64,000 nt of DNA from Minisyncoccota bacterium (GCA_028718635.1 JAQULK010000001.1:543834-607833); one strand, 5' to 3'. Positions 17,223 through 63,649 are shown, numbered from the stretch's first letter. Numbers and translations: made by a program. The notes: generated by a model from the letters alone, not told the origin.

Positions 17223-18974
17223 CTAGTATATTTCTTGCTGATAACACCTCTCACAATAAATAATTTCAGGACGTTCCGGAGCATAACTGGTCTCAAACTC
17301 TACAGGGCATTTACCTATATGGGTATGGGTAGTCTTTTCACACATGCAGGCTCTATGCCAAAGCTTTAAGGGATTCCTTTGTTTCAGTCTTTGGTAATGT
17401 CTGCAATTAGGACAGAGATGAGGTAAAGGTAGATTCATTCTTTGGTAGAATTGGAGTTCTGGAGCAATGATTTTGAAGGCTTCGGTGCATTGTTCATTGC
17501 ATTTGCCTTGATGTTCGCATTCTATGACTTTCCCTAGGATGGATTCATCTACGTCTTGGATGTTGTCCGGAATGTCTGTTGTTTTAATGTCTAGGGTATA
17601 GTTTCTTTCTTCTGCATCTTTCCATTGGTAACCTTGTTTTAAAGCTTCTTCTTTGGTTAAAGGAAAGTATTCTTGAGCGATGGTTTCGTTGTAACAGAAA
17701 GGGCTTAATTCTGTTGGAAAGAACTCTCCGTATTGGTAGATTCTGCCTTTGGTGTCTAGGTAGGGCATATCGTTCATGTGCTTGATGATTTTGGGGACTA
17801 GTTCTTCGTATTGTTCTTTGGTGTATTGGTGGTTGAGGATGCAGTAGGATTTGTTGCGGAGACCGACGCAGGCGAAGAGGTGGATAGATCCTGAACAATT
17901 TATAGAATAAGAAATATCACTACTGTCCTTTATAAAAAAACTAAATTTATAATCGGAATTTTCATTTGATTCAAAACCTAATGCAATAGTCTCATAGACT
18001 GATTCTGCTTTTGACATTCCATAATTGTCATAGCTATCTTTTACGCCAAGGACTGAATGTGTGGTGTATTTACTATTTTCAGAATCATTTCCCAATACAT
18101 CAAAACAATATTTACAATTTCTTGCATTCCTAATATTATTCCCTGTGCATTCTTTTGTATTAATTAAAAGAGAATGTCTGTGTATAGAATTAAGATATAA
18201 ATCTTTAAATTTATCTTTGTTTTTTTGCAAAGAATCATAACTACCTAAATTTAAATTCTGAATAGTTGCCAAATATTCTTCCCTCTTCATTTGTTTATTA
18301 AAAAAACAATATTGTTTATTCTTTAAATTAGTACATCCAAAACAGTTAGTGCAATTTTTACATTCGTATAAAAAATATGAATCAACGCAATTATCAGAAT
18401 TTTTACTAAAGAATAATCTGTTTGAATTCTCGCATTGAATATCCTCATAACAAAGTTCAAGTTTTTTAGAAATAGAAATGTCTAAGGAATCTTTCATGAA
18501 GGATGAGTTGCTGGAATATAAAACATTTTCATCGTTTTTACTTCCAAATAAGAGGTAACAATTTTTATTTTCAGCAGAAAAATTACAATAATCTGAATTT
18601 ACTGGATTAGTATTAAATAAACTCATTTGTGGAACTTTATTATATAAATCCTTTAGCTGAACGAAAAAATTTTTAGAAAAATCATAATCGCTTCCAAAAG
18701 AAAAAGGATCCCAAGAATCTCCCCACCAGCAATCCTGACAGAATACATTTATGGGACTTTCTTCTGCATAAATAGAAATAATAGTTTTTTTACAAAGATT
18801 GCATTTCCTTTTATACAAAGACCTTTCATTGCGAAAGTTCATCCTTTTGACCATCCGACATTCCGGACACCATGTAGGTGGAGGCACTTTTATTTTTTTA
18901 TAGAAATTAAAATCTTCCGGCTCGATTATGAAGTCTTTTTGACAATTTTGGCATACTTTAGTTTCCGAATCCAT
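17223..18974 (-). CDS. Cys-rich zinc-ribbon/beta-repeat family protein, paralog 1
   Basis: CQNC..DF...DF.FY..IKVPPPTWCPECR N-terminus, CxxCxxCFGC repeats, YGEFFP, LPHLCPNCRH, ETSYAPERPEIIYCERCY end. Confidence 0.9.
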   Translation of the reverse strand: MDSETKVCQNCQKDFIIEPEDFNFYKKIKVPPPTWCPECRMVKRMNFRNERSLYKRKCNLCKKTIISIYAEESPINVFCQDCWWGDSWDPFSFGSDYDFSKNFFVQLKDLYNKVPQMSLFNTNPVNSDYCNFSAENKNCYLLFGSKNDENVLYSSNSSFMKDSLDISISKKLELCYEDIQCENSNRLFFSKNSDNCVDSYFLYECKNCTNCFGCTNLKNKQYCFFNKQMKREEYLATIQNLNLGSYDSLQKNKDKFKDLYLNSIHRHSLLINTKECTGNNIRNARNCKYCFDVLGNDSENSKYTTHSVLGVKDSYDNYGMSKAESVYETIALGFESNENSDYKFSFFIKDSSDISYSINCSGSIHLFACVGLRNKSYCILNHQYTKEQYEELVPKIIKHMNDMPYLDTKGRIYQYGEFFPTELSPFCYNETIAQEYFPLTKEEALKQGYQWKDAEERNYTLDIKTTDIPDNIQDVDESILGKVIECEHQGKCNEQCTEAFKIIAPELQFYQRMNLPLPHLCPNCRHYQRLKQRNPLKLWHRACMCEKTTHTHIGKCPVEFETSYAPERPEIIYCERCYQQEIY

Positions 18975-19000
18975 GGACTTAAAATTAATTATTTTTATGT

Positions 19001-20101
19001 TTAATTTTTGCGCTGAAATTTTGATATATTAAGCACTATGCCTATAGCCATCATATAAACCATAAGTGAAGTGCCTCCTTGGCTCATAAACACTAATGGA
19101 ACTCCTGTTAAGGGAAAAACCCCAACCACAGAAGCAATATGCATAAATGATTGCGCTGTAATTAGTATAACAATTCCATAAACTAAAAGTCCACTAAAAG
19201 CATCTGGGGAGCGATTGGCAATACGAAAACCCCGTAAAATAAAAAATAAATAAAGAATTATCGTAAAGACTGATCCGACAAAACCTAATTCTTCGCCCAA
19301 AACAGCAAAAATAGAATCCCCTTGCGGCTCAGGAAGATAACTGAATTTTTGAATGCTTTGACCGAATCCACGCCCTATAATACCGCCAGACCCTAAGGCG
19401 ATGAGAGATTGCTGGATTTGATAGGAAGATCCTTGCGCATCCTGCGATGGATTTATAAAAGTTTTTACCCGTTCCTGCAGATAAGGCGTAAAATATACAA
19501 GGGTTCCGAGTAGCAGTGTCGCCCCTAAAATCGTGCCTATAATATATTTAACAGGAACGCTTGAAATAAAAAGCATCGACACTCCGGTAACAGTAATCAA
19601 GATAAAGCTTTTTGTATCCGGCTGTTTTAATAGAACCACAGCAATGACTGCGAGCATCACTAAGAATGGCAAAATTCCAAATTTAAAATCCTTGACTCTG
19701 CTTTTCGCCCACGACAGCCAAGCGGCAAAATAAATCACAAAAGCAAATTTTAAAAATTCAACAGGTTGGAATTTTAGCAGGCCTAGGTCGATCCATCTTT
19801 CTGCCCCTCCATGACTCCACCCAAGTGCAGGAATAAAAACCGACGCAGTCAATAATATTGATCCCAGAAAAATTATTAAGGAAAATCTGCGCCAAAATTT
19901 ATAATTAATCTTAGAACAAAAGTACATGCCCAGAAAACCAATACCAAGACCTAAAACTAGTTGGCTAAAAAGCACTGAATAAAAAGTTTTTTCATTTCTT
20001 GCTAAAACTCCGAGCGATGCTGAAATAAACATAGCCACTCCCAGCGCTAATAAAATAAATGTAATTATAAGAAAAAATTTATCGGCCTTTTTTTCTTTCA
20101 T
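19001..20101 (-). CDS. ftsW: SEDS peptidoglycan polymerase FtsW
   Basis: GAERWI, FQPVEFLK, KQPD, YLPEPQGDSIF, PLTGVPLVFMSQGGTS; lies between mraY and murG. Confidence 0.95.
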   Translation of the reverse strand: MKEKKADKFFLIITFILLALGVAMFISASLGVLARNEKTFYSVLFSQLVLGLGIGFLGMYFCSKINYKFWRRFSLIIFLGSILLTASVFIPALGWSHGGAERWIDLGLLKFQPVEFLKFAFVIYFAAWLSWAKSRVKDFKFGILPFLVMLAVIAVVLLKQPDTKSFILITVTGVSMLFISSVPVKYIIGTILGATLLLGTLVYFTPYLQERVKTFINPSQDAQGSSYQIQQSLIALGSGGIIGRGFGQSIQKFSYLPEPQGDSIFAVLGEELGFVGSVFTIILYLFFILRGFRIANRSPDAFSGLLVYGIVILITAQSFMHIASVVGVFPLTGVPLVFMSQGGTSLMVYMMAIGIVLNISKFQRKN

Positions 20102-20216
20102 CCCGTACGAAATAGGACGCGTACGCTTACGTTATATCCTTTGTTTTGTTATTAATAATAGATCTTATCAATTTCATAATTTTATTTGTTTTATGCGTCC
20201 GCGATTTCGTTCGGGA
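20102..20216 (-). mobile_element. start-codon-targeted inverted-repeat element E3 (ATGAA duplicated)
   Basis: Minus strand ATGAA-TCCCGAACGAAAT...ATTTCGTACGGG-ATGAA (ftsW start). Confidence 0.75.
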
Positions 20217-20224
20217 TTCATTCT

Positions 20225-21280: not shown

Positions 21281-21323
21281 TTAATCAGTATAACATTAAT
21301 TTTCTTTTGATTAAAATATATGG

Positions 21324-22190: not shown

Positions 22191-22216
22191 TTTATTTTGA
22201 ATTACAAAAGAAAAGT

Positions 22217-22941: not shown

Positions 22942-24705
22942 TTAATAAACTTCCTGTTGATAGCACTTCTCACAATAAATTATTTCTGGTCTATCTGGTG
23001 CATAACTCGTCTCAAATTCTACTTCGCATTTTCCTGCTCCATGAAAATGATTTTGTTTATCACACATGCAGACTCTGTGCCAAAGTTTCATTGGATTTTT
23101 TTGTTTCATTCTTTGATAGTGCCTACAGTTCGGACACAACCTAGGTAAAGGCAAATTCATTCTTTTGTAAAATTGCAAATCTTCAGGAAGAATTCTGAAG
23201 GCGGTCATACAATCCTCCTCGCACCCTCCTTCATGCTCACAGCCTATCACTTCTTCTAAAATTGAGTCCTCGACTTGTAGAATACTGTCCGGAAGTTCGT
23301 TCGATTTTTTTGTAATTTTATAATCTCTTTTTTCACGATCTTTCCAATTATAACCACTTGCTAGAGCTTTTTCTTTATTCAGAGGAAAATATTCTTGCGC
23401 AGTAGTTTCATTATAGCCATATGGTGAAAATTCTACAGGAAAAAATTCACCGTATTTATATACTCTTTCTTTTTTATCCATATAAGGCATATCATTCATA
23501 TGTTTGATTATTTTAGGAACCAGTTCTTCGTATTCTTCTTTTGTGTATTGCTTGTTTAAGATGCAATATTCCTTCTTTTTTAAACCAACGCAAGCAAAAT
23601 TATTTTCTCCTCCGACAACCCTGATGCTATAATCTATATTTCTCGAACTACTCCAAACTCCCCAACTATGCTTAATATTATATGTACCATTTCCACACTG
23701 AAGACATTCATATACAAGCTCAATATTATCTCCATAATGAGTAAAATCATAAGTAGTTCGTACTGGTCCATTTGAAACAAAAGAGCAAAATTTTGAATCT
23801 TCTGTATTTATGACGCAAAAACATTCTTTGGCATTTTTGGAATGTACTATATAGTCACCAGTCACATTTGAATTTTGAACACCAAAATAATATTTTTTAG
23901 GAAATTTTTTCCAAAACTTCTTAGCTTTTTCTTTCAATGCACTTATATTTTTATAAGAATCCAATCCGAAAGATTTTAATTTTTCTTCGTATTCTTCTTT
24001 GGTGTATGGGGCATTCCAAATGTGATAACTTTTTTTATGGAGATTTACACAACCAAAACAATTATTGCATCCGCGAAGACTATAAGAAAAATATACTTCC
24101 ACGCAATCTTCACAATTTTGAGAGAAAAAAGTCCGATAACAATTTACACTAGTTACTGTTTCATAACTAAGTTCTACTCTATCTACCATAGTAATGTCCT
24201 GCGAATCTTTTGAGTGGAAAACTCCGCTTCCGTAAGATATGTCTTCGTCAAAGGTTCCATCATGAAGCAAGTAACAATTTTTCATATCATTTGCCATATT
24301 GCAATACTGAGAATTAATCATAGTCATACTTATTGCGAAAAGATTACCAATGGGAACTTTAAGAAAAAGTTCAAAAATTTGATCAAAAAATGGTCTGGAA
24401 AAATCAATATCCATTGCATAATCAGAAGCATTCCAATCATCTCCCCACCAGCATTTATCGCAATATATAGTATCTTTTTTATAATCTTTGCTATAAATAG
24501 AAATTATTTTCTTTTTACACAAACCGCATTCTCTATAATGAAGACTCTTTTCATTGCGCCATGCTAAACGTCTTTGTAATCTACACTCTGGACAAAAAGT
24601 CGGCACCGGCACTTTTATTTTTTCATAAAATCCAAAATCATTCGGTTCTATTGCAAAGTCTTTTTTGCAATTTTGGCATATTTTGTTTTCTTTTTTATGT
24701 TCCAT
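22942..24705 (-). CDS. Cys-rich family paralog 2
   Basis: Same N-terminal, central and C-terminal motifs as paralog 1. Confidence 0.9.
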   Translation of the reverse strand: MEHKKENKICQNCKKDFAIEPNDFGFYEKIKVPVPTFCPECRLQRRLAWRNEKSLHYRECGLCKKKIISIYSKDYKKDTIYCDKCWWGDDWNASDYAMDIDFSRPFFDQIFELFLKVPIGNLFAISMTMINSQYCNMANDMKNCYLLHDGTFDEDISYGSGVFHSKDSQDITMVDRVELSYETVTSVNCYRTFFSQNCEDCVEVYFSYSLRGCNNCFGCVNLHKKSYHIWNAPYTKEEYEEKLKSFGLDSYKNISALKEKAKKFWKKFPKKYYFGVQNSNVTGDYIVHSKNAKECFCVINTEDSKFCSFVSNGPVRTTYDFTHYGDNIELVYECLQCGNGTYNIKHSWGVWSSSRNIDYSIRVVGGENNFACVGLKKKEYCILNKQYTKEEYEELVPKIIKHMNDMPYMDKKERVYKYGEFFPVEFSPYGYNETTAQEYFPLNKEKALASGYNWKDREKRDYKITKKSNELPDSILQVEDSILEEVIGCEHEGGCEEDCMTAFRILPEDLQFYKRMNLPLPRLCPNCRHYQRMKQKNPMKLWHRVCMCDKQNHFHGAGKCEVEFETSYAPDRPEIIYCEKCYQQEVY

Positions 24706-24735: not shown

Positions 24736-26439
24736 TTAATACACTTCCTGTTGATAACATTTCTCGCAGTAAATAATCGGAGCGTAAGATTCATCATATA
24801 CTGTTTCAGCTTCTATATTGCATTTTGAACAAAAACGTTTTATTAATCTAAAAGGCGAACGTTTTGCTAAACGTCGCATATGCCTGATATAAAAACTCGC
24901 GTGTGGAAGAGGTAAATCCATTTTTCTATAAAATGAAAGTTCGTTCTCTGTTATTTTATATGCCCCTACAGATTTCGAATTATTTTTTTCTTCGCATTCT
25001 ATAATTTCCTTTAAAATTGAATCATCGGTTTCGCTAATGGTTTCAGGCAACTCTGAACTTTTAATCGTTGTTTTATAATTTTTTTCTTCTCTGTCCTTCC
25101 ATTTATACCCTTTTGCTAAAACCTCTTCTTTTGACAAAGGAAAGAAGTCTGCCGCTGCTGTCTCATTAAAAGCAAAATCAGAAAAAGAGTTTGGAAAATG
25201 TTCGCCAAATCGATACTCTAAACCTTGATCAAAATAAGGCATTTCTTTCATTTGTTTTATGATTTTTTCTTTCAGCACTTCATATTCCTCTTTATTATAC
25301 TTTTTATTCAAAATTGAGTACTCTCCTTTTTTTAAACCGACACATCCAAAACAATTCCGTGCCCCTGGACAGGAATTGCAATAATATAAATCCGAGGCTC
25401 CCATCCAACACTGAGTGCAAAAGTAAATTCTAGCGATATCTAGACCGCAGTTTTCTGATTCATATACTAGTTCAGCCTTATTCCCCCATTCAAAAAAATC
25501 CATGCAGTCTTCCAAGCCGAAAACCGAAAAAAGATACTTTCCATCTTTTACATTTACACAATCAAAAGATTGATGTACGTTTTTGCAGTTCGTAAACCAA
25601 TTGCCAGAAACATCACTAGATTTTATAGAAGCAACCGCTTTTTGAGGGAATTTTTTTCTAAATTCTTCAAATTTTCTATCCATTTCCTTAATGCCAGAAT
25701 AAGTGTTCAATTTAAGACCCTTTATCTTTTTAAAATATTCTTCTTTAGAATAAGCTTCGTTAAAAATATAAAATTCCTTATTATTCAAATTAACGCAACC
25801 TACACAATCAGAACAATTTCGGCAAGCATACAAAAACGAAGAATCCCTGCAATCATGGCTCTCCATACTAAACCTAAGGTTATAACAATTTCTGCAATTT
25901 ATACATTCATAACAAAGCTCGCTTTTGTCAGTCCAAGCGCAGTCGGAACAATCTCTTATGTTCTCGGCAATATAGCTATAAAAAGAATTTTCTGCATTGG
26001 TGGCTCTGAAAACCATATAGGAATTCCTTGGACTGGTAACACGATGAGTGTAAGGGCTATTGATCGCAAAACCCTGCCTGACAAGACTCATTCTCGGAAC
26101 CTTGTTTTGTAATTCCAAAAATTGTTCAAAGAATGGACGATTTTCGTCGTAATCCATTCCATATGAAGACGGATCCCATTTATCTGAATACCAAATATCT
26201 ATATCATAAACTGGAAATATCGTTTTCTCGGGATACATACTAAAAATTTCTTTGTTCGTAAAATCACATTTGCGCTTATAAAGAATAAGCTCATTGGTGC
26301 TCATTAGGCGTCTCATTAGCCTACACTGCGGGCAAAAAGTCGGTGGTGGTACTTTTATCTTTTCATAAAACCCAAAATCATCCGGCTCAATTACGAAATC
26401 TTTTTTACAATTTTGGCAAGTTTTAATTTCTTCTTTCAT
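24736..26439 (-). CDS. Cys-rich family paralog 3
   Basis: Family motifs; ends in a clean CxxC-x17-CxxC. Confidence 0.9.
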   Translation of the reverse strand: MKEEIKTCQNCKKDFVIEPDDFGFYEKIKVPPPTFCPQCRLMRRLMSTNELILYKRKCDFTNKEIFSMYPEKTIFPVYDIDIWYSDKWDPSSYGMDYDENRPFFEQFLELQNKVPRMSLVRQGFAINSPYTHRVTSPRNSYMVFRATNAENSFYSYIAENIRDCSDCAWTDKSELCYECINCRNCYNLRFSMESHDCRDSSFLYACRNCSDCVGCVNLNNKEFYIFNEAYSKEEYFKKIKGLKLNTYSGIKEMDRKFEEFRKKFPQKAVASIKSSDVSGNWFTNCKNVHQSFDCVNVKDGKYLFSVFGLEDCMDFFEWGNKAELVYESENCGLDIARIYFCTQCWMGASDLYYCNSCPGARNCFGCVGLKKGEYSILNKKYNKEEYEVLKEKIIKQMKEMPYFDQGLEYRFGEHFPNSFSDFAFNETAAADFFPLSKEEVLAKGYKWKDREEKNYKTTIKSSELPETISETDDSILKEIIECEEKNNSKSVGAYKITENELSFYRKMDLPLPHASFYIRHMRRLAKRSPFRLIKRFCSKCNIEAETVYDESYAPIIYCEKCYQQEVY

Positions 26440-26486: not shown

Positions 26487-28238
26487 TTAATACACTTCCT
26501 GCTGATAACATTTCTCGCAGTAAATTATTTCTGGCCTCTCTGGTGCATAGCTCGTCTCAAATTCGACATCGCACTTCTCTGTCCCATGAAAATGATTTTG
26601 TTTATCACACATGCAGACTCTGTGCCAAAGTCTCATGGGATTTCTGTATTTAAGCCTGCGTGCGTGTCTACAATTCAGACAAAGGTTCGGAAGCGGTAAA
26701 TTCATGCGTCGATAAAATTGCAACTCGGCTTGAATGATCTTAAATGCGCCAGTGCATTGATCATTGCAGTTGCCGTCATGTTCGCATTTTATGACTTCAT
26801 GTATAATATCATCCTGCACCTCTGAAATAGTATCGGGTAAATCGCTCACATTTTTTGTGATTTTATAATTTCTCTTTTCGGTTTCTCTCCACGAATATCC
26901 CAAAGCCAATGCTTGTTCTTTGGTCAATGGAAAGAATTCTTGAGCGGTGGTTTCATTGTAGGCAAAAGGACAAGTTTCTATCGGGAAAAATTCTCCATAT
27001 TTATATATCAGGCCTTGCTTGTCTGTGTAAGACATATCATTCATATGGTTTATAATTTGTTCTCTTAATTTAAAATATTCTTCTTTTTCATATTGCTTAT
27101 TGAAAATACAATATTGCTTTTTTCTTAAACCGACACAGCCGAAAATATCCTTTGAATTGACACAAAACATAGAATACTCCACATTTTGGCAATTTGTGAT
27201 TATCCAATGAGAGAATTTTATATTCGCGTTCTGGTCACCGCTTTGCAATGTCTCATACAATAGCGAGGATCCTTGGCCAAACGTGCTGTGGTCGTAAGCA
27301 TCGGTTAATTTTCCTGTTATAAAACTGCAAAATTTACTGTCTTCGATCTCAAAACCAATGAAGCAATTTTTTGCATTTTTTGTGTCGTTTAAATAATCGC
27401 CAGACGATCCGATATTTCGCCATCCATGATAAAATTTTTGAGGATAATTTTGCGACAAAGATTCGACTTTCTCTTGTGCTGTTTTTATCTTTTTTAATGA
27501 ACTTGGGTATAGTTCTGCTAATTTCTTATTATAATCTTCCTTGGAATACTGTTCATTAAAAATGCAATAACTTTTTTTATTTAAATTTATACAGCCGAAA
27601 CAATCATTGCACCCTGAGCAATTTTTAGAAAACATAACATTATGGCAACTATCGCAATCAATACTGAAAAATGTATTGTAGCATCGATTGCAATTCATAG
27701 TTTCATAGCAAAGCTCGCAATGGTTCGCCATTAAATTATCCACGCTGTCCTTGCTATGATTCACGAAACTACCATAAATCAAATTTTCTCCATAATCAGA
27801 ATAAGTAACCATGTATGAATTTTTTTGCCAAGCAGACATGTTGACGTATTCAGTATTAATCCAAGTCGAATACAATCCATATAAATTCATTATGGGAACT
27901 CTGTGATACAGATCATTTATTTGCGAAATTACATTCTGTTTTGGATTAAAATCAACTCCATAATCTATCGCGTCCCAGTCATCTCCCCACCAGCACGAAG
28001 TACAATAAACATGAATTCCAGAATCTTCTGCAAAGATAGCAATCGTCTTTTTATCGCATTTTTCACATATTCGATGATGGAAAGTTCTTTCGTTTCTTCG
28101 AGCCAGCCGACGTATCAAACGGCACTCAGGGCAAAAAGTCGGCAGTGGCACGTTCATTTTTTCATAAAATCCAAAATCATCTGGCTCAATCGTAAAGTCT
28201 TTTTTACAGTTTTGGCAAGTTTTAATTTCTTGATTCAT
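26487..28238 (-). CDS. Cys-rich family paralog 4
   Basis: Family motifs. Confidence 0.9.
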   Translation of the reverse strand: MNQEIKTCQNCKKDFTIEPDDFGFYEKMNVPLPTFCPECRLIRRLARRNERTFHHRICEKCDKKTIAIFAEDSGIHVYCTSCWWGDDWDAIDYGVDFNPKQNVISQINDLYHRVPIMNLYGLYSTWINTEYVNMSAWQKNSYMVTYSDYGENLIYGSFVNHSKDSVDNLMANHCELCYETMNCNRCYNTFFSIDCDSCHNVMFSKNCSGCNDCFGCINLNKKSYCIFNEQYSKEDYNKKLAELYPSSLKKIKTAQEKVESLSQNYPQKFYHGWRNIGSSGDYLNDTKNAKNCFIGFEIEDSKFCSFITGKLTDAYDHSTFGQGSSLLYETLQSGDQNANIKFSHWIITNCQNVEYSMFCVNSKDIFGCVGLRKKQYCIFNKQYEKEEYFKLREQIINHMNDMSYTDKQGLIYKYGEFFPIETCPFAYNETTAQEFFPLTKEQALALGYSWRETEKRNYKITKNVSDLPDTISEVQDDIIHEVIKCEHDGNCNDQCTGAFKIIQAELQFYRRMNLPLPNLCLNCRHARRLKYRNPMRLWHRVCMCDKQNHFHGTEKCDVEFETSYAPERPEIIYCEKCYQQEVY

Positions 28239-47309: not shown

Positions 47310-47318
47310 GAAATTTTT

Positions 47319-47353
47319 ATTATCACTTTGTGACGGCCGTTAAATTTGACAAC
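47319..47353. repeat. hairpin Y, copy 2 (3' of paralog 5)
   Basis: ATTATCACTTTGTGACGGCCGTTAAATTTGACAAC. Confidence 0.75.
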
Positions 47354-47356
47354 ACA

Positions 47357-50240: not shown

Positions 50241-51755
50241 TTATATCATAGGCTCAGCCTCTTGTGAAGTTTTAGTTTCTATTTTTTGATTATTTTCCTT
50301 AATCTCTGATTCTTCAGATATTTCTTCTCCCCTTTCTTTTGCTTTTCTTTTAGCTTTTCCTTCAATAATAGCCTTTTCTTCCGCACTTCGAATGATGGTA
50401 GCTTCTTCTTCAGCGATAAGTTTTGCCGCATCGTCTTTTGAAATTGAGTACTTCCTACGCGAGGCATCAACAATTTCTTTTCTATAAGACGGATGTGTGG
50501 GCGCTAAAACCCGCAAGGTCTCAGCGGAAAATGGATCATAAGATTCTCCATCGATGGTCATCTTGATATAAATTTCTCCTACTGCGAGATTGATCATATC
50601 TTTCACATCAAAGAGTGGCGCAAATTCTGGTTTCATTTTGACGGCATCTTCACCACCAACACGAAAAGTAATGATACTACCGCAATTTCCGAGCACTGCC
50701 TGATGAACTTTCGTAATAATTTGGCCCACATACTGGTGGGCGATAGTTAAGTTTAATCCGTACTTTCTAGCCTCGGATAATATATTTTCAAAAGTTTGGG
50801 TGACGACATTTTGGAACTCATCTACGTATAAATAAAAATCTGTGCGGTCTTTTTCCGGAATAGCCGCACGTTCCATGCCGGCTTGTTTTATTTTTGTCAA
50901 AAACATTGAACCCAAAAAGGAAGAATTTTCTTCTCCAAGTCGGCCCTTGGAAAGGTTGATGAAAATTATTTTTCCTTCATTCATCAGCTTACTGATATCA
51001 ATCTTATTCTGTTTCTGACCGAAAATATTTCGAAGTAATGGATCGGAAAGAAATTGGCCGAGCTTGTTTACGAGCGGGATGATAGCGTCCGTATCGAATT
51101 TCTCCGACCAGTCGGCAAATTCTATAGCGAAGAATCTTTTGACCATATCGTCGGTAATATATTCCACCACTTTTTGCCTGTAATTCCTGTCAGTCAACAT
51201 TGAGATCATCCCACGCATAGTAGCATGCGGATAATCAAGCAAGGCCAAACAAGTAAAACGAAAAACGTGCTCCAGACGAGGAGTCCAGTTGGCTCCGAAT
51301 TGCTTTTGAAATACTTCGATCAATCCTTGGGTCAATTGGAATTTAAACATCGGATCGACATTTGCGAGCGGATTGAAAGAAGCTGGAAAATCAATATCTG
51401 GCGGATCTATAATGCAGACATCTTCTATACGTTCTTTTGGTATATAGTCCAGCATCGCGTCAATCACATCGCCGTGCGGATCGATCAGGCACAAGCCATG
51501 ACCATAAGTCACATCTTGCCTGAGCATGAGTTCTAGAAGTTTCGTTTTACCAACACCAGACTTTCCGATGATATAAAGATGTCTTCGTCTATCTATTCTT
51601 TTTATTCCAAAAATAAATTTTTTCTCTTCTAAAGAAGCAACGTAATTTGTCCGTCCGATAAAAGAAACTTCAGCCGGATCTACTTTGCCGAACACAGGCA
51701 GTTCTGGTGGTGGTGGTCCGTATTTTATTATTTGCACTCGATTCGGCTTGGGCAT
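50241..51755 (-). CDS. VirD4/TraG-like (FtsK-HerA superfamily) ATPase
   Basis: GKSGVGKT, IDPHGD, YVDEFQ, LSEARKY. Confidence 0.88.
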   Translation of the reverse strand: MPKPNRVQIIKYGPPPPELPVFGKVDPAEVSFIGRTNYVASLEEKKFIFGIKRIDRRRHLYIIGKSGVGKTKLLELMLRQDVTYGHGLCLIDPHGDVIDAMLDYIPKERIEDVCIIDPPDIDFPASFNPLANVDPMFKFQLTQGLIEVFQKQFGANWTPRLEHVFRFTCLALLDYPHATMRGMISMLTDRNYRQKVVEYITDDMVKRFFAIEFADWSEKFDTDAIIPLVNKLGQFLSDPLLRNIFGQKQNKIDISKLMNEGKIIFINLSKGRLGEENSSFLGSMFLTKIKQAGMERAAIPEKDRTDFYLYVDEFQNVVTQTFENILSEARKYGLNLTIAHQYVGQIITKVHQAVLGNCGSIITFRVGGEDAVKMKPEFAPLFDVKDMINLAVGEIYIKMTIDGESYDPFSAETLRVLAPTHPSYRKEIVDASRRKYSISKDDAAKLIAEEEATIIRSAEEKAIIEGKAKRKAKERGEEISEESEIKENNQKIETKTSQEAEPMI

Positions 51756-53647: not shown

Positions 53648-55792
53648 CTATTCTAAAATTTTTCTTAAAACATCTTCTGGTACTTCCCTCGGCTGTAGCC
53701 CTCCTACGGGCGAAGCTGGTGTTTTTGGCTTTTGGGGAGTTTCTTCCCCTCCTTGTGAAGGAGGGGTGCCTGCCTGCCGGTCAGGCAGGGCTTCAGCCGG
53801 GGTGGTGATTTTTTTCGTAATCAAATCTTTTAATTTATTCATATTTTCCGGAGTAGCTGCGCGGTCAACACCTATTGGACTGACAGGCTTTTTTACTTCC
53901 CTCGGCTGTAGCCCGCCTATGGGCGAAGCTTGCATTTTATTTTTTAGAGAATCAAGTGAAATGGGAGTAGGTGTGGAAACAGGCGTTGGTGTGGATTTAG
54001 TTTCTTCTACTACTACTTTATTTAAAACTTCTCTTAATGCTGAATTGTCCCCATTTACTCGTTTCACAGGAGCTCCACTAATGCGAGCTGGATAAACGGG
54101 TTTGACTTTAACTGGAACTTTTTTAGTAAAAACTTTTTTTATAGACTTAAATACACTAGGCTTGCTTGCTAAAGCAATATCTTTTTCTCCTCTTTCTTGA
54201 TATCTATGTTCTTCTTCAACTCCTCCATTCTTTTGTTTAAATTCTATACCTAAATCAGCCAATGGTTTATAAAATTTAGATTCATCATACTTAATTTGAT
54301 CTTGCCCCCTTTTTTCCACCTTAACTTCTCCAGATTTTATTTTTGCTATACATTCCTTACAATAAACTGCTCGGCCTGGTTCAGGCTTGAAAGGTACCGT
54401 CTTTTCTAACTTACAAAGAGAACAAATTACGGGAAACTTTTCCAAATTTCCATTTCCGTTAGTGTCAGGATAATTGCCCAAGGACATTCCGCTCCAGTTA
54501 TTGATTTCTCTTTCCACTGCCTCGCGAGGCCTACAATAAAGATCCCGGGATGATTTTATTACCTCTTCTTCTATTTTTTTATTACCCGACTTTACTATCG
54601 GAGGCAAAGTCCTAGCGGAAAATGGACGGGAGGTCACGCCATCGATCATCAACTTCAGATAAATTTTATAGTTTGGCAAGTTTACAATATCAGAAGGAGT
54701 GAATTCTGGATCAAATTCTTTTTCTAAAAAGTCTGCATCGTCCGAGCCGACCCTAAAAACTATCATTGTGCCGACGTTACCAAAAACAGCATCACGCACC
54801 GCAGAACTCTTATCAGAAATAAGTTGCGCAGTGTACTGGTGCGCCACCGTCAAATTCAGCCTGTATTTTCTAGCTTCAGACAAAATACCCGCAAAAGCAT
54901 CCGTCACAAAGTTTTGGAATTCGTCGACATAAAGGTAAAAGTCTTTGCGGTATTCCTCAGGGATGCGCACTCGTTCCATCGCGGCTAGTTGAATCTTGGT
55001 AATGATCATTCCTCCTAATAGCCCGGAATTGTCTTCACCGATTCGTCCCTTGGAAACATTCACGAGAAAAATCTTCCCGTCATTCATAATGTCGAAAATG
55101 TTGATCGTACTTACAGATTGGCCGACGACATTGCGGATAATCGAGGTCGAAAGAAATTGCCCGACTTTGTTTTGAATCGGCGCGATGGCCTCATTTCTGA
55201 ATTTATCCTGCCAAGCTTCATACTCATGGACCCAGAAGGCTTTTATAACCGGATCTTTTAGATTAGAAATTATTTTCTGGCGGTAATCTTTGTCTACAAG
55301 CATTCGGGGAATTCCAAGCAGGGTCGTTCCCGGAGTATCGAGCAATGCCAAAATACAATTATTTAAAATATATTCCATTCGGGCACTCCAAGCGTTCGCC
55401 CAGATTTTCGTAAAAATACCCATGAGTCCGGACGCTACCAGATGCTTATATTGCGGATCAATTAATTCCAAAACATTAAAACCGATATGATAATCCGTGT
55501 CTGCCGGATTAAAATAAACTACATCTTTCATTCGCTCCGGCGGAATAGCAGAAAGGACGCCTTCGACGAGTTCTCCGTGCGGATCGACTACGCAGACTCC
55601 TTCGCCGTTCTGAATATTCTGAACTATCATATTAAACATCAAGGCAGATTTACCGGTACCGGACTTTCCGAGAATATAAACATGCTGACGCCTGTCCTTG
55701 CGTTTGATGCCAAAGAGTTGATTTTTGTCGCGAAAAGATGTGAGCCCAAGATAAGTAATATCTCTATTTTTTGGTATTTCTGGCAGTTCCAT
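53648..55792 (-). CDS. VirD4/TraG-like ATPase with CxxC-x17-CxxC domain and repeat-laden tail
   Basis: GKSGTGKS, VDPHGE, YVDEFQ, LSEARKY, CSLC-x17-CKEC. Confidence 0.9.
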   Translation of the reverse strand: MELPEIPKNRDITYLGLTSFRDKNQLFGIKRKDRRQHVYILGKSGTGKSALMFNMIVQNIQNGEGVCVVDPHGELVEGVLSAIPPERMKDVVYFNPADTDYHIGFNVLELIDPQYKHLVASGLMGIFTKIWANAWSARMEYILNNCILALLDTPGTTLLGIPRMLVDKDYRQKIISNLKDPVIKAFWVHEYEAWQDKFRNEAIAPIQNKVGQFLSTSIIRNVVGQSVSTINIFDIMNDGKIFLVNVSKGRIGEDNSGLLGGMIITKIQLAAMERVRIPEEYRKDFYLYVDEFQNFVTDAFAGILSEARKYRLNLTVAHQYTAQLISDKSSAVRDAVFGNVGTMIVFRVGSDDADFLEKEFDPEFTPSDIVNLPNYKIYLKLMIDGVTSRPFSARTLPPIVKSGNKKIEEEVIKSSRDLYCRPREAVEREINNWSGMSLGNYPDTNGNGNLEKFPVICSLCKLEKTVPFKPEPGRAVYCKECIAKIKSGEVKVEKRGQDQIKYDESKFYKPLADLGIEFKQKNGGVEEEHRYQERGEKDIALASKPSVFKSIKKVFTKKVPVKVKPVYPARISGAPVKRVNGDNSALREVLNKVVVEETKSTPTPVSTPTPISLDSLKNKMQASPIGGLQPREVKKPVSPIGVDRAATPENMNKLKDLITKKITTPAEALPDRQAGTPPSQGGEETPQKPKTPASPVGGLQPREVPEDVLRKILE

Positions 55793-57857: not shown

Positions 57858-58406
57858 ATGTCAAGTTATTCAAGAAAAATACTTAAAAAACTAGCCGAAA
57901 GACCGGCAATTTCCGTGGAAGATTTAAAAGACCTGCCTGCCATGCCTACCGGCAGGCAGGCCGGCGAGGCAGGAAATGATACTAAAACAACCTATGCTAT
58001 TTCTCGCGCCTTAAAAAATTTAGTGGAAGGCAAATATGCAGAAATTCATGAATCCGGAAGGCAAGATTACGTAAAAATTACTCCTCTTGGAAAAAATAAA
58101 TTAAACACGTTGCTCTTGGAAAATGAGAGTGTGCTGGTCCCACAAAATTGGGATGGATTTTGGAGAATTATTTTGCTTGATCTTCCTGAAAGTAGAAAAA
58201 GTGAGCGCGAATCTTTACGCTACCTTTTAAAAAAAGCTGGCTTTGTCTGTCTAAAAAATTCTGCTTGGATTTCTCCCTTCCCTTTTGAACATTTGTTTGC
58301 GAACATAAAAAAAGATCTCGGGCTCACCACCGAGATAATGATCATCGTCACTGAAAATATAGACAACGAAAGTAAAAAAGTTTTATTTGAAAGTTTTGGA
58401 AAGTAG
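57858..58406 (+). CDS. PaaX-like transcriptional regulator (wHTH plus PaaX/Cas2-like domain)
   Basis: WDGFWRIILLDLPE..K.ERESLR.LLKKAGF..LKNSAWISPF. Confidence 0.85.
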   Translation: MSSYSRKILKKLAERPAISVEDLKDLPAMPTGRQAGEAGNDTKTTYAISRALKNLVEGKYAEIHESGRQDYVKITPLGKNKLNTLLLENESVLVPQNWDGFWRIILLDLPESRKSERESLRYLLKKAGFVCLKNSAWISPFPFEHLFANIKKDLGLTTEIMIIVTENIDNESKKVLFESFGK

Positions 58407-58452: not shown

Positions 58453-58456
58453 TAAC

Positions 58457-60184
58457 CTAGTATATCTCCTGCTGGTAGCATTTCTCGCAATAAACTATTT
58501 CCGGACGGTCGGGCGCATAACTGGTCTCAAATTCAACTTCGCATTTGCCTTTATGATTTGAATGATTTTCTTTATCGCACATGCACTGTCTTTTAAAAAA
58601 AATAGGTGGATTTCGCAACTTTAAACGTTCATAATGTCTGCAATTAATACATAAACGAGGCAATGGAAGGTTCATTCTTTTTAAGAAATCAAATTCTGTT
58701 TTAATTATGCGAAAAGCCTTCGTACATTCATGTTGACAATTTCCTTTATGAGCACATTCAATAGATTGATTCAAGATGTTCTCATCAATTTCTTTTATGT
58801 TATCTGGAATATCTTCATTTATTAATGTAATTTTATAATTTTGCTTTGAAGTTTCATACCACAAAAACCCTTTACTTTTCGCTTTTTCTTCACTTAAAGG
58901 AAAAAATTCATATGCTTGAGTAGCGTTGTACGGAAAAAAGGAAAATTTACTCGGAAAAAATTCTCCGTATTCACTTGTTTCTTTCATGTGTTTAATTATT
59001 AGAGGCACTATTTTTTCATATTCTTCTTTGGTGTATTGCTTGTTGAAGATGCAATATTGTTTATTTTTTAACGAAACACACCCAAAAAGATCTGACGAAC
59101 TACTACAGAAAACACAGTAAGTCAAATTCCTTACATTCGGATAACAGTAAGCACTGAATTTAATATTCGAACTTCCATCACCAACAATAAGACTTTCATA
59201 AATAAGCTCTGCATTTTCTCCATAATTAGAATAATCGTAACAATCTTTCACTGGACCACTTAAAATATTTTGAACGAATTTACTATCTTCCACCGTCCTA
59301 ACACGAAAACAATATTTTGCGTTTTTAGACCCATAGACATAATCACCGGAAACATTCATATTTTGACGGTCATGGATATATTTTTGAGGATAATTAAGCC
59401 AATGCTTATAAGCTTTGTCGCGTAAGATTTCAAAAGCTTTGTTGGAGCCCAAGTTAAATTCTGCAACTTTTTTTAAATATTCTTCTCTTGAATATTGTTT
59501 ATTAAAAATACAATATGATTTATTGCGAAGATTAATTGACCCTAAACAACTATTGCATCCAATACAATCTTTACAGAAAATCATTTCTTGGCAACTTTCA
59601 CAATCAACTGAAAAAAATGTTTTGTAACAAGTTGTTGTATTAACATTTCCATAACTTAATTCACATTTAGTTGTCATGTGACTGTCAAAGGATTGTTTAG
59701 AACCCGTGTCCCAAATAAGATAAGCGGAATCTTCCGTATAAGACGCTCCTCGAACGAGATAGCAATTTTTGCAGCTATGATTATTTGAACAATAATAACA
59801 ATTCACCATATTGTACATAGAATGTACAGGTAGTGGTACTTTATAAAGCAAATCTTTAAACTGTTCAAAAAATGGTTTTGAAAAATTATACTCTTGACCA
59901 TATTCCAAAGGATTCCAAGCATCAGAAATCCAATAATCCCGATCATATATTTTATAAGTGTTTTCTTCAGGGAAAAGTGAGAAAATTTCTTCCCCATTTA
60001 GAGCTTCCTTTTTCTTGAATAAATGCCAATCATTACGCCAAGCCATACGTCTTTGCAACCTGCATTCTGGACAAAAAGTAGGCGGTGGAACCTTTATCTT
60101 TTCATAAAAGTTAAAATCTCCCGACTCTATCGTGAAATCTTTTTGGCAATTTTGGCATATTTTGTTTTCACTGTTACTTTCCAT
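58457..60184 (-). CDS. Cys-rich family paralog 7
   Basis: Family motifs. Confidence 0.9.
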   Translation of the reverse strand: MESNSENKICQNCQKDFTIESGDFNFYEKIKVPPPTFCPECRLQRRMAWRNDWHLFKKKEALNGEEIFSLFPEENTYKIYDRDYWISDAWNPLEYGQEYNFSKPFFEQFKDLLYKVPLPVHSMYNMVNCYYCSNNHSCKNCYLVRGASYTEDSAYLIWDTGSKQSFDSHMTTKCELSYGNVNTTTCYKTFFSVDCESCQEMIFCKDCIGCNSCLGSINLRNKSYCIFNKQYSREEYLKKVAEFNLGSNKAFEILRDKAYKHWLNYPQKYIHDRQNMNVSGDYVYGSKNAKYCFRVRTVEDSKFVQNILSGPVKDCYDYSNYGENAELIYESLIVGDGSSNIKFSAYCYPNVRNLTYCVFCSSSSDLFGCVSLKNKQYCIFNKQYTKEEYEKIVPLIIKHMKETSEYGEFFPSKFSFFPYNATQAYEFFPLSEEKAKSKGFLWYETSKQNYKITLINEDIPDNIKEIDENILNQSIECAHKGNCQHECTKAFRIIKTEFDFLKRMNLPLPRLCINCRHYERLKLRNPPIFFKRQCMCDKENHSNHKGKCEVEFETSYAPDRPEIVYCEKCYQQEIY

Positions 60185-60202
60185 TTTTGAAATTTCTTAG
60201 TC

Positions 60203-60217
60203 TATCATATATGATAT
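60203..60217. promoter_or_regulatory. palindrome identical to the core of the murA-unit operator, between paralogs 8 and 7
   Basis: TATCATATATGATAT equals 10350-10364. Confidence 0.55.
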
Positions 60218-60230
60218 GCTAATTAAATAT

Positions 60231-61973
60231 TTAATATATCTCCTGTTGATAACACCGTTCACAGTATACAGTCTCTGGTCGGTCCGGAGCATAGTTCGTT
60301 TCAAATTCTATCTCGCATTTGCCTTTGTGATTTGAATGGTTTTCTTTGTCGCACATACATTCACGTTTATAAAGTCTTGGTAAGGGTAATTGTATAAATC
60401 TTTTGTAATGACGACAATTAGAACAAAGAACAGGAAGCGGTATATTGTGTTTCTTATAAAATTTTAGCTCATAATCCGTCAAACGAAAAGCTACATTACA
60501 ATGATGGTCACACCTCCCTGCATGAGCACATCCTAAAACTTCTTTCAAAATTTCATCATTTACTTCGACTATATTGTCTGGAATTTTTTCTGTTGGTATA
60601 CTAATTTTAAAATTTTTAACAATAGATTCGCGCCAAGTATAACCTTTTTTTGCTGCTTCCTCCTCTGTGATAGGAAAAAATTCCTGAGCTATAGTTTCGT
60701 TGTATCCCCAAGGAGAAAGTTCTACTGGAAAAAATTCACCATATCTATAAATCCTTCCCACCTTATCCACAAAAGGCACATTTTCCATTTGTTTTATGAT
60801 CTCCTCTCGAAGTTTATTAAATTCTTCTTTTGAATAAACCCTGTTTAAAATTGCATTTTCTTTGTTTTTTAGACCGGTACAACCAAATATATCATTGCAA
60901 TTGGCACAAAAATCAACATAATCCGCATCTCGCACAGAGTTATTGGCAGAATGGGAAAACTTTACATTGTAATCGTCTAAGGAACCTGTCACATACTCAT
61001 ACATCATCTCTGACCATCCGCTATAAGTAAAATCCATACAATCTTTTGCAACCAGAGTTCTATAGCCATATTTTACATTTTCCACATCCTCTGAATTAAA
61101 ACAATTTTTACAATTTTTCACATTGGAAAGATTATTTCCTGTAGAATTTACTGAACGAATGATGTTAGCAAAACGATAAATAGCTCTTTGCTTTATCTCT
61201 TCGAATTCCTTGATTAAGATTTCACGCGAAGCCCTGCTTTGTAAATTTAATTTCTTTATCTCTTTTAAATATTCTTCTTTTGAATATTGTTTGTTGCGAA
61301 TATAAAATTCTTTATTGCGCAAATTATAAGAAAGTAAGCAGTTACTACAATTTACACAATCAACCAAAAAATAAGAATCCAAACAATTTCTAGACAATAA
61401 AACGTGCTGGCAATTATAGTTTTTTTCTCCTTCAATATTCTCATATAAACTTTGTCCTTCCTTCATATTTGCGCAATCAATAATATCGCTGGACTTGTCT
61501 ACTGTTGTTGAATAAAAAACATTTTCTGACCCTTTAACGACAGAAACAGATAAGTAAACATTTCTTGATTCCCCAACATAGTTCGAATAATCAGAATTAA
61601 TAGAATTTCTCTGCCAAAGAGCTAACCTTGGTACAGTTTCAAGCAATTCTTTAAATTGTTCAAAAAAAGATCTAGAAAAATCATAACCCCGTCCAAAAGT
61701 AGTAGCTTCCCACGCGTCTCCATGCCAACATTCCCTACAGTAGACAGGAAAGGACACAAATTCAGCATACATTGAAATAATATTTTTTTTACACAGACTG
61801 CAGTCACGACGATACAATACCCTCTCATTACGCCAAGCAAGACGCCTAATAAATCTGCATTCCGGACAAAAAGTAGGAGGCGGTACTTTTATTTTTTCAT
61901 AAAAATTAAAATCTTCTGCCTCTATGATGAAGTCTTTCTTACAGTTTTGACAAATTTTAATTTCTTGTTTCAT
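60231..61973 (-). CDS. Cys-rich family paralog 8
   Basis: Family motifs; start trimmed to MKQEIK at 61973. Confidence 0.9.
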   Translation of the reverse strand: MKQEIKICQNCKKDFIIEAEDFNFYEKIKVPPPTFCPECRFIRRLAWRNERVLYRRDCSLCKKNIISMYAEFVSFPVYCRECWHGDAWEATTFGRGYDFSRSFFEQFKELLETVPRLALWQRNSINSDYSNYVGESRNVYLSVSVVKGSENVFYSTTVDKSSDIIDCANMKEGQSLYENIEGEKNYNCQHVLLSRNCLDSYFLVDCVNCSNCLLSYNLRNKEFYIRNKQYSKEEYLKEIKKLNLQSRASREILIKEFEEIKQRAIYRFANIIRSVNSTGNNLSNVKNCKNCFNSEDVENVKYGYRTLVAKDCMDFTYSGWSEMMYEYVTGSLDDYNVKFSHSANNSVRDADYVDFCANCNDIFGCTGLKNKENAILNRVYSKEEFNKLREEIIKQMENVPFVDKVGRIYRYGEFFPVELSPWGYNETIAQEFFPITEEEAAKKGYTWRESIVKNFKISIPTEKIPDNIVEVNDEILKEVLGCAHAGRCDHHCNVAFRLTDYELKFYKKHNIPLPVLCSNCRHYKRFIQLPLPRLYKRECMCDKENHSNHKGKCEIEFETNYAPDRPETVYCERCYQQEIY

Positions 61974-61975
61974 TT

Positions 61976-63649
61976 TTAAGCAATATTCTGCTTGTAACAT
62001 TCTTCGCAAGCGATTTTCTGATATCCCCACTCTGGCAAATAATACGCTTCAACTTCTTTTTCGCAATAAAAACACTTATACGGATATGCTTGCAAAACGG
62101 TCAAGTATTTCAAACTATTTTTTATACGCACGTCAAAATGACGACGCGGAAGCGGAATATTGTTCTCTCTATAAAAAGAGAGTTCGTTTTGGGCAATATT
62201 AAAACGCCAGCCTGTCTCCGGGCATATGAGCGCTTGAGTAATAATGGTATCTGGTACATCTTTTATGTCATCAGGCAATTCGCTTGTAGGCATTCCATCT
62301 ATATGATTCTCTATGATATCTTCCCAATAACCTCCAAGTTTTAAAATATCTTCTTTTTTTGTATCTGGAAAATATAAAAAGCTTGTTGAAAAATTGAAAG
62401 GTCCTGCGCTCATAGCGTAAGGTAAAAACTTTCCATATTCTCCCCTCTTTTTCATATCAGAAACTATTTCATCTTTTAGTTTTTCATACTCTTCCTTGTC
62501 ATACTGTTTATTTAAAATGCAATATTTTTTCTTCTTGAGTCCAACACAACCAAAACAATATTCACATTCAAAACAAATGTCTAAATATTCAGAATACCTG
62601 GAAGGAGACCAACTCGAATATTTGAGAGAATAACTATTTCCTTGACAGGCGCTGCAATTACCAGACAATTCCAAAAACTGACAACCATTAGAATCAATAC
62701 TTGATTTTAATTCTTGCCCTCTGATACAATTTGATAAATCTTCAGAAGTTTGTATCGTATTACAATTGTGACAATTTTTTACATCTAATAAATAATTTCC
62801 ATCTGAATTATGTGTTTTTAGATTAAAATTTGGCCTGTGAACTACCTCTTTTATAATTATTTCCTCAAAACGTCTTTTATATTTTTGGATAGAACCATAG
62901 GAACCTAAATTAAATGATTTTATTTTTTTTTCATATTCCTCTTTAGAATACTGAACATTTTCTATGCAATGAGATTTGTTGCGTAAATTCCAACACATAA
63001 AACAGTTTTGGCAATTTCGACAATCGTATAAAAATCTAGAGTCTATGCAATCACGAGAATGTTTGGAATAAAAAAGTTTATAAGAGTTAAAGCAATCTGA
63101 GGAATCATAACTTTTTTCGCAAAAAAAACCAACAATCATATCAAAAGAATTCTTTACTCCTATATTTCTATATGAATAATACAAATCTTCACAATCCACC
63201 ATCGAACGAGATAAATAACAATTTTTTGAATTCCAAACATCATCGCACCAATCACAACCAGTATTCTTTATACCTCCTTGGTGTGGGTGAGGAATTTTTT
63301 CTTGAAGTTCTTGTAATTGCTCAAAAAAAGGCTTACTAGAATTATAATCCATTCCATAATCCATCGCGTCCCATTTGTCGCTGTACCATTCGTTTAAAGT
63401 ATAGATCGGGTATCTGCTTTTTTCCGGCAAAACAGTGATCAAGCTCTCTCCTGAAAGGTCTGATTTGCCTTTGCGGAATTTTCCAAACATCCAAAAAGAT
63501 AAATGTAATTTTACTCGACAGAAAAAACAAAGCGTTGGCAGTTCAATATCAACTTTTTTATATAAAGATAATTCCTCTTCTGTAATTGTGAAGTCTTGCT
63601 GGCAGTGTTCACAAATTTTATGTTGCTGATTCTTTGTATTCATATACAT
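61976..63649 (-). CDS. Cys-rich family paralog 9 (most divergent)
   Basis: CEHCQQDF...LPTLCFFCR, CRNCQNCFMC, EYGKFLP, CFYC...CEECY; overlaps the grpE 3' end. Confidence 0.88.
   Translation of the reverse strand: MYMNTKNQQHKICEHCQQDFTITEEELSLYKKVDIELPTLCFFCRVKLHLSFWMFGKFRKGKSDLSGESLITVLPEKSRYPIYTLNEWYSDKWDAMDYGMDYNSSKPFFEQLQELQEKIPHPHQGGIKNTGCDWCDDVWNSKNCYLSRSMVDCEDLYYSYRNIGVKNSFDMIVGFFCEKSYDSSDCFNSYKLFYSKHSRDCIDSRFLYDCRNCQNCFMCWNLRNKSHCIENVQYSKEEYEKKIKSFNLGSYGSIQKYKRRFEEIIIKEVVHRPNFNLKTHNSDGNYLLDVKNCHNCNTIQTSEDLSNCIRGQELKSSIDSNGCQFLELSGNCSACQGNSYSLKYSSWSPSRYSEYLDICFECEYCFGCVGLKKKKYCILNKQYDKEEYEKLKDEIVSDMKKRGEYGKFLPYAMSAGPFNFSTSFLYFPDTKKEDILKLGGYWEDIIENHIDGMPTSELPDDIKDVPDTIITQALICPETGWRFNIAQNELSFYRENNIPLPRRHFDVRIKNSLKYLTVLQAYPYKCFYCEKEVEAYYLPEWGYQKIACEECYKQNIA

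Follow-up and report, generated by a model that had tools for sequence, protein, structure and literature searches.

Paralogues that exchange their loci through conserved ends have been described in Helicobacter pylori. The genes babA, babB and babC have conserved 5′ and 3′ homology around a middle that is conserved for each paralogue, any paralogue can occupy any of the loci A, B and C, a locus can also be empty, and gene conversion generates chimeras (accessible part of PMC4552749). Similarly, in the esaG and tipC arrays several paralogues that differ from each other follow in a row, and recombination alters their number by way of conserved blocks, which in tipC lie at the start and the end of the gene (accessible part of PMC9484751). 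Here we describe a family of this kind in a Minisyncoccota bacterium (GCA_028718635.1). Nine of its genes, all cysteine-rich and each encoding a large protein, lie in a stretch of 64,000 nucleotides (nt; JAQULK010000001.1:543834-607833), which we call the window and whose first letter is position 1.

The likeness to bab extends to conserved ends, a type-conserved middle, loci that vary or are empty (between species, not between strains) and conversion tracts at the ends. However, the Bab proteins are outer-membrane adhesins of three types at three loci in one species (PMC4552749, accessible part), whereas here the proteins appear cytoplasmic, fall into at least 60 types at 32 sites across a genus, and are tied to an ATPase. 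The esaG and tipC arrays stand at the locus of their cognate toxin (PMC9484751, accessible part), whereas here no cognate toxin is seen, many housekeeping operons carry arrays, and the proteins have no relation to those of esaG and tipC. As dynamics go, this is a known kind, but bab and tipC show it on a much smaller scale. The module of protein and ATPase possibly has no described counterpart, going by the searches we made. The literature searched yielded no account of the family (subscription papers lay outside it, and the family may be among the unnamed clusters in the supplements of PMC6744442 and PMC12102498); the words “cysteine,” “zinc” and “VirD4” do not occur in the main text of PMC6744442.

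We read the nine genes as optional, type-specific clients or substrate adaptors of a neighboring soluble ATPase, ATPB, that move via their conserved ends. Taken whole, this reading of the sequences has about an even chance of being right, in our judgment, and its parts differ. Movement through conserved ends is very probable, a functional link between the family and ATPB is somewhat probable, and a role in the selection of substrates for secretion is put forward tentatively. The features concerned are as follows (aa, amino acids).

17223..18974, minus strand: copy 1, 583 aa, between ftsW and murG
17238..17871, minus strand: 634-nt 3′ tract in copy 1, with 97.5% identity to copy 5
22942..24705, minus strand: copy 2, 587 aa, last in the scpB array
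24736..26439, minus strand: copy 3, 567 aa
26440..26486, minus strand: 3′ spacer of copy 4, resembles those that follow copy 5 and the copy at C1:169170
26487..28238, minus strand: copy 4, 583 aa, first after scpB; structure model with a predicted local distance difference test score (pLDDT) of 94 and a predicted template modeling score (pTM) of 0.92
47310..47356, minus strand: 3′ spacer of copy 5, resembles the copy 4 spacer
47357..49105, minus strand: copy 5, 582 aa, 1 nt after dnaJ
47372..48005, minus strand: 3′ tract of copy 5, common to copy 1
50241..51755, minus strand: ATPB, soluble ATPase resembling VirD4 and type IV coupling proteins (T4CPs), 504 aa
51850..53574, minus strand: copy 6, 574 aa, between the two ATPases
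53648..55792, minus strand: ATPA, second VirD4-like ATPase, 714 aa, of a widespread subtype
54338..54439, minus strand: CxxC-x17-CxxC treble-clef finger in ATPA (PF23477, TIGR04272)
58457..60184, minus strand: copy 7, 575 aa, last in the grpE array
60231..61973, minus strand: copy 8, 580 aa
61976..63643, minus strand: copy 9, 555 aa, with divergent ends; its start overlaps grpE
C1:621490-622848 (contig coordinates, 14 kb beyond the window): split N-terminal partner of ATPB, homologous to a domain that is fused in other classes

Here and below, C1 is the contig of the window, G000 is its genome, and other G and L labels denote genomes of relatives and stretches fetched from them.

The original prediction, made from the window alone, had placed nine minus-strand paralogues at these five sites and put them at about a quarter of the window. 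This is borne out: there are nine intact open reading frames (ORFs) of 555–587 aa with 30–37 cysteines each, together 24.4% of the window. At dnaJ and grpE the starts are as tight as predicted. Copies begin 1 nt after dnaJ, 26 nt after ftsW, 23 nt after scpB and 61–73 nt after the first ATPase (ATPA), and the start of copy 9 overlaps grpE by 26–32 nt. At window positions 63618-63649 this first grpE-site copy starts within the last codons of grpE, and so do the grpE-site copies of several congeners and the husks in G018 and G015 described below. The common strand of the nine copies is unremarkable and reflects local gene orientation: of the 56 genes called in the window, 39 share the minus strand, and in the half of the contig with positive skew the family copies lie on the plus strand. 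An upstream gene in the same orientation is found for 15 of 17 copies and for 507 of 673 other genes.

A profile search with the nine copies found 17 full-length copies in the 761-kb genome, eight of them outside the window, so that about 4% of the DNA of this 0.76-Mb genome consists of family genes. Pairwise identity ranges from 32 to 66% among the nine and from 30 to 66% among all 17, with an average of 26–29% between paralogues in the middle. Named relatives of the proteins are annotated as hypothetical and come from Ca. Nomurabacteria and other Patescibacteria, so the genome probably belongs to that group.

Most types of the family that could be placed more than once occupy different sites in different species. 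Our type set consists of 150 full-length copies among 164 family ORFs from 18 congeneric genomes. Grouped at 45% identity in the middle of the protein, which is predicted to form solenoids, they fall into 60 types, 30 with several members and 30 with one; with 220 further copies there are 143 types among 370 copies at 48%. The 145 copies that could be placed use 32 sites. Among the 28 types placed in at least two copies, 20 occur at different sites and eight keep one site. Copy 1 has nine type-mates at eight other sites and none at ftsW-murG. Type-mates of copy 2 are found in the scpB-mraY interval and after dnaJ, those of copy 3 after rseP and in a grpE array, those of copy 5 at other sites, and those of copy 8 at grpE and three other sites. 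For copy 6 we found no type-mate, and for copy 7 a single one, likewise at grpE. Four types are fixed: one beside cca (11/11), one before rplS (10/10), that of copy 9 (6/6 placed) and a second grpE type (6/6). Copy 9 is first after grpE in all six placed congeneric members. It is an anchored orthologue, stable and syntenic, a pattern that the original prediction had named as speaking against cassettes if found for each copy; the description fits copy 9 and none of the other window copies.

The sites themselves are filled in some relatives and empty in others. We surveyed them in 100 stretches fetched around the listed matches and around host genes, with 35 weaker matches left out. At ftsW-murG none of 14 congeners has a copy. 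At dnaJ three of nine have one, of other types than that of copy 5, and the scpB-mraY interval is filled in four of ten. Two sites are almost always in use: that after the first ATPase (13/14 congeners) and that after grpE (8/9), each with one to six copies. At grpE the expectation that grpE and dnaK are normally adjacent did not hold in this genus, where a paaX-like gene on the opposite strand separates the two. This is so in the window and in the congeners that we followed, whether or not family genes are present.

Family copies may also be hot spots of rearrangement, although the evidence is only suggestive. Junctions that span a family copy differ from the gene order of G000 in 25 of 115 cases, compared to 55 of 542 other junctions (p = 0.0014), and at least seven of the 25 reflect one or two gene placements specific to G000. 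Three copies (in G006 on contig C15 at about 104.7 kb, in L146 and in L193) have the upstream gene of one site, rseP or ATPA, and the downstream gene of another, mraY, as expected if rearrangements break at copies. Two stretches from one metagenome (L183 and L184) are identical over 6,727 nt and diverge at position 6728, which is the last codon of a copy. One then continues into purD and the other into the gene following the dnaJ site, a strain-level rearrangement or a mis-join.

The first and last 45 codons or so of a copy follow the genome and not the type. The nearest neighbor outside the type comes from the same genome in a proportion of 0.35 at the 5′ end and 0.30 at the 3′ end, compared to 0.16 and 0.15 after shuffling (shuffles stratified by GC content at third codon positions; 0 of 2000 reach the observed values), and windows in the solenoids have no such excess. 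A paralogue from the same genome beats the type-mate in 53 of 94 comparisons at the 5′ end and 44 of 92 at the 3′ end, compared to 0 of 95 and 1 of 95 in the two solenoids. Seven of the eight terminal windows that are at least 85% identical lie within one array, and shared 3′ spacers occur in six pairs where 0.75 are expected. The more divergent the ends of a type, the more often it keeps its site (rho = −0.46, p = 0.04, 21 types). A tract of 634 nt is 97.5% identical between copies 1 and 5, with 10 synonymous and six non-synonymous differences, while their middles are 36–46% identical; contig depth doubles over the shared tract. By its sequence this tract is the product of recent gene conversion or crossover.

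Lost copies leave remnants of the same ends. After grpE, G015 has a husk in which the first finger is fused in frame to the last, and G018 has a husk of 169 bp; in G381 a husk of 149 bp lies between the split partner gene and ATPB. G000 itself has two orphan 3′ ends. One (C1:241939-241994, 28 bits with a 3′-end profile) lies in the interval where G009 keeps the type of copy 1, and the other (C1:113086-113112) scores 15 bits; a reversed control had no match at 12 bits. These collapsed 5′/3′ husks mark lost copies. Together, the observations support the idea of cassettes in operons: relatives have filled and empty sites, the same type occurs elsewhere, ends recombine and husks remain.

The simplest account of the movement would be homologous recombination by the host at the conserved ends. 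Crossover or conversion within about 130 nt of either end of a gene would lengthen or shorten arrays and exchange their members. A position behind housekeeping genes would provide expression by read-through. The first seeding of a wholly new site, such as ftsW-murG, would fall outside what this mechanism explains.

One could also argue that a dedicated recombinase moves the family, and the original prediction had proposed to look for one, but none was found. Two tyrosine recombinases, four serine recombinases and three RAYT genes are present in the genome. No recombinase or RAYT gene in it adjoins any copy, and the nearer of the tyrosine recombinases is 6.7 kb from one. Integron cassette arrays and diversity-generating retroelements have in common with the family promoter-less genes in arrays and variable repertoires. 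We rejected an integron cassette array, since there is no adjacent integrase and the spacers, often of 0–10 nt in the arrays of relatives, have no common element by eye. A diversity-generating retroelement was rejected too, as there is no RVT_1 match, and so no reverse transcriptase, in the 98.7% complete genome. A replicative transposon or insertion sequence is not compatible with the lack of any transposase match in Pfam and NCBIfam and of close copies within genomes. The check for terminal repeats and target-site duplications covered the flanks of the copies in four genomes, and relatives are too distant for a base-level comparison of empty sites. Movement guided by dispersed REP palindromes, as for cargo mobilized by RAYT proteins, was another candidate. 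In G000 such palindromes show no enrichment at copies, with six of 17 copies and 138 of 675 genes flanked by them (p = 0.14); they are enriched at copies in one of six genomes (G006). Dispersed repeats are thus found at about 20% of the genome's gene 3′ flanks; GC-rich examples in the window lie at 17150-17222 and 57930-57962, and in frame within ATPA and the paaX-like gene.

The repertoire of a genome is not redundant. The highest identity in the middle between two copies of one genome is 43%, while type-mates in different genomes reach 60–80%. Not one of the 234 close pairs (at least 45% identity in the middle) falls within one genome, where 19.6 are expected (0 of 5000 shuffles); without the four anchored types it is 0 of 80, with 7.1 expected. 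Assembly could hide only near-identical duplicates. In run X1, possibly the source sample, contigs on those window copies that are covered have an even depth (13–17), and read depth gives no hidden duplicates of these copies, the region of copy 6 being poorly covered in X1. Among 88 pairs of type-mates the proportion of non-synonymous differences (pN) is 0.15–0.23 in all regions, with a synonymous proportion (pS) of 0.81–0.90. Within types the solenoid middle has, against a saturated pS, a pN of 0.17–0.20, which is in the range of nine housekeeping genes (0.09–0.27). Repertoire overlap does not track host relatedness, and identity within types does so weakly (rho = 0.26 for mobile and 0.15 for anchored types). 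Compared with the congeneric types, three of 46 copies from distant lineages reach 46–53% identity and the rest 30–45%. By these comparisons the types are old, long resident and under purifying selection, in a family that is diverse and not visibly diversifying now.

The original prediction had seen an expanding, diversifying family in the window. In its full form this would mean that copies arise by local duplication, that their middles diverge under positive selection, and that all of this is independent of the ATPases. Tandem arrays of up to six copies and the low average identity of the middles would fit. However, recent duplicates should resemble each other most within a genome, where identity in the middle stops at 43%, array neighbors are scattered across the paralog tree, and pN is far below pS in every region. 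Ongoing expansion is therefore largely refuted, and we regard it as very unlikely.

The range of the family is patchy. All 18 congeners drawn match it, with one to 26 matches each, and none of 12 other families of the order does. G018, one of the 18, has a remnant only, and a further congener, G419, has no match. Family-positive genomes make up five of 120 in a draw from the order, 26 of 200 from the class (in nine families) and nine of 150 from the phylum. Such patchiness, at least 32 sites, complete loss in some congeners and insertion just behind stop codons are what one would expect from selfish or hitch-hiking elements, whose protein aids its own spread or retention, so that co-occurrence with ATPB would reflect an ancestral insertion site only. 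It is improbable that this argument holds, for the following reasons. First, replicative elements leave close copies, of which no genome has two, and depth reveals no hidden ones. Second, four types are fixed orthologues over six to 11 genomes. Third, the GC content of family codons tracks that of the host (r = 0.92, 17 genomes). Fourth, searches of 50,697 phage records, of 72,556 plasmid records and of IMG/VR contigs did not find the family, and no transposase, recombinase or nuclease fold is among the structural matches listed.

A link to one clade of ATPases is what the original prediction overlooked. ATPB and ATPA pass the Pfam cut-offs of TrwB_AAD_bind, TraG-D_C and T4SS-DNA_transf, and in this resemble type IV coupling proteins (TrwB, VirD4, TraD). 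Unlike VirD4-type proteins, ATPB lacks a membrane anchor and lies far from virB4, and in this class a separate gene encodes its N-terminal domain; in other classes this domain is fused to ATPB. A search that covered VirB4 only found one VirB4-like gene in the genome, a P-loop_TraG gene at C1:135924. ATPB is 85–95% identical among the closest relatives. Across the genus, genomes that lack the family included, it is more conserved than DnaK (pN 0.087 vs. 0.125). The split partner gene is followed by a family copy in G013. Another comparison is Legionella, where the coupling protein DotL has the adaptors IcmSW and LvgA.

The co-occurrence of ATPB and the family recurs at each taxonomic depth. In the order draw, ATPB orthologues (73–89% identity) are found in four of five family-positive and none of 115 family-negative genomes. 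In the class draw of 200 genomes, with the ATPB boundary set at the score gap between 552 and 466 bits, 25 genomes have both, one the family only, six ATPB only and 168 neither; in 18 of the 25, ATPB lies at most 2.5 kb from a family gene. In the phylum draw of 150, the nine family-positive genomes rank 1–8 and 12 for ATPB. A quick maximum-likelihood tree of 57 ATPases places ATPB in a clade of 18 rows (Shimodaira-Hasegawa approximate likelihood ratio support of 100) with all nine family-positive genomes and none of the 24 top-scoring family-negative genomes chosen for the tree. Dependence runs one way only: ATPB persists where the family is absent, and the family is rarely found without ATPB. 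In two distant lineages (L273 and L274) family arrays adjoin genes for ATPB and for a putative TrmB-like regulator, so labeled from the best G000 match. A PF23477 finger in general was rejected as the co-occurrence partner, being non-specific (47/65 genomes).

The ATPase could also be a HerA-like motor downstream of an intracellular library for sensing or immunity, in which each type recognizes one foreign target among phage proteins or the toxins of competitors. One copy per type, purifying selection, dispensability and end shuffling match the esaG and tipC arrays (accessible part of PMC9484751), and ATPB weakly matches MADS mad8 (E = 6e-13) and HerA defense models. We nevertheless consider this unlikely. 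The best curated matches of ATPB are coupling proteins (although the NCBIfam coupling-protein models are all far under cut-off), and ATPB is more conserved than DnaK. PADLOC assigned no family to the three family proteins tested, and the copies lie behind housekeeping genes and not in islands.

The protein itself was first folded with a nine-row alignment (pLDDT 73), and copy 4 then with an alignment of 145 rows, which gave a single body with pLDDT 94.4 and pTM 0.92. In this model the predicted order is a zinc-finger pair, a narrow beta-solenoid that bears a helical cap, another capped solenoid, and a second zinc-finger pair. Conserved residues recur between the two halves of the protein, a pseudo-duplicated unit. 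A solenoid flanked by zinc modules had been expected; the model agrees on the flanks, with two pseudo-duplicated solenoids, capped by finger pairs, in place of one. No 19-residue window exceeds a hydrophobicity of 1.41, so that neither a signal peptide, as had been said, nor a membrane helix is evident.

Known domains match at the ends of the protein. The treble-clef models zf_Tbcl (PF13451) and zf_Tbcl_2 (CxxC-x17-CxxC; PF23477, TIGR04272) match the terminal modules weakly. All nine copies stay below the Pfam and NCBIfam cut-offs (the zf_Tbcl match of copy 8 is weak), including that of PF23477, which some homologues and ATPA do pass. The finger in ATPA belongs to the domain family that weakly matches the second and fourth fingers of our proteins. 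Members of zf_Tbcl and zf_Tbcl_2 are mostly small stand-alone proteins or ATPase fusions, whereas here two finger pairs cap two solenoids in a protein of 580 aa that belongs to no described family. No PDB match was found for the model from nine rows. The 145-row model has solely generic solenoid matches in the PDB and viral libraries (fingers and second solenoid were not folded alone). The first solenoid, of which only residues 120–267 or so align, matches the N-terminal part of phi29 gp12 (3gq7), the Tenebrio antifreeze protein (1ezg) and the ryegrass ice-binding protein (3ult) with Z of 8.5, 7.7 and 7.7 over 81–97 residues at 10–12% identity. Such Z values lie in the range given for a common structural arrangement, and no function follows from them. 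Matches in the ESM Atlas are the family's own unnamed clusters only, and a search of representatives (50%-identity clusters) returned 2,279 proteins at E ≤ 1e-30.

With 30–42 cysteines per protein and four CxxC-type finger modules, the proteins might store metal or scaffold Fe-S clusters, a possibility that the original prediction had raised. We think it most improbable, as most solenoid cysteine columns alternate with serine, valine or leucine, near-invariant cysteines being confined to fingers and solenoid caps. The swappable cysteines would fit a ladder that points inward better than they would fit metal ligands. A store is not expected to come in many conserved types per genome, and Pfam, NCBIfam and the fold lists contain no ferredoxin-like match.

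If the proteins are adaptors or clients of ATPB, the shared ends would form a common docking or recognition surface, and the faces of the solenoids would carry the specificity of each type. Export into the host through Patescibacteria's type IV secretion system (T4SS) and action as an intracellular adaptor are about equally probable. A complex prediction of ATPB (residues 28–440) with copy 4 scored 0.00, which is evidence neither way.

Several observations weigh against this reading. As for movement, the contigs of four runs, at low depth, contain no credible joint for a strain-level excision or swap. Adjacent copies are on average no more alike at their ends than copies elsewhere in the same genome, and an internal conserved motif (residues 361–400) also has an excess of same-genome neighbors (0.21 vs. 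0.12). The pairs behind the pN values were picked for at least 60% identity in the middle, which biases pN there downward. As for the ATPase, G018 and G419 have no intact family gene and keep ATPB at 91–92% identity, so ATPB does not need the family. The fragmented family-positive genomes G209 and G301 gave no ATPB-level match, and the ATPase tree is a quick search and not a finished careful one. Kin are not independent, the positives of the order draw may be one clade, and the counts overstate the link; co-occurrence may partly reflect joint inheritance of neighboring genes. Finally, of 5,713 VirD4-like proteins in 2,918 Patescibacteria genomes 148 are near virB4 (PMC12102498, accessible part). 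Most T4CP homologues of the phylum are hence far from virB4 and may serve other roles, which that part of the paper leaves open.

Two further observations concern single loci. A 5′-truncated copy of 310 aa with the second half only has a site of its own in G017 (L093, C2, about 7.0–8.7 kb). At 9657-10317 in the window, tRNA-Leu is directly followed by a 210-aa frame with two motifs that we take to be LAGLIDADG-like.

The co-occurrence ties one clade of coupling-protein homologues, of which Patescibacteria have thousands far from virB4 (PMC12102498), to a large unannotated protein family, and it provides concrete candidates for T4SS substrates or adaptors as well as a testable link between repertoire and host range. 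One could go further, although we doubt that all of it will hold, and suppose an undescribed two-part system of Patescibacteria, in which a hyper-conserved coupling ATPase is served by a genus-wide library of more than 100 interchangeable zinc-capped solenoid proteins that select T4SS cargo to or from the host. The specificity of each protein would be fixed, and cells would load, drop and relocate cassettes through the conserved ends. If this were true, the repertoire of a cell would be a genomic read-out of its host range.

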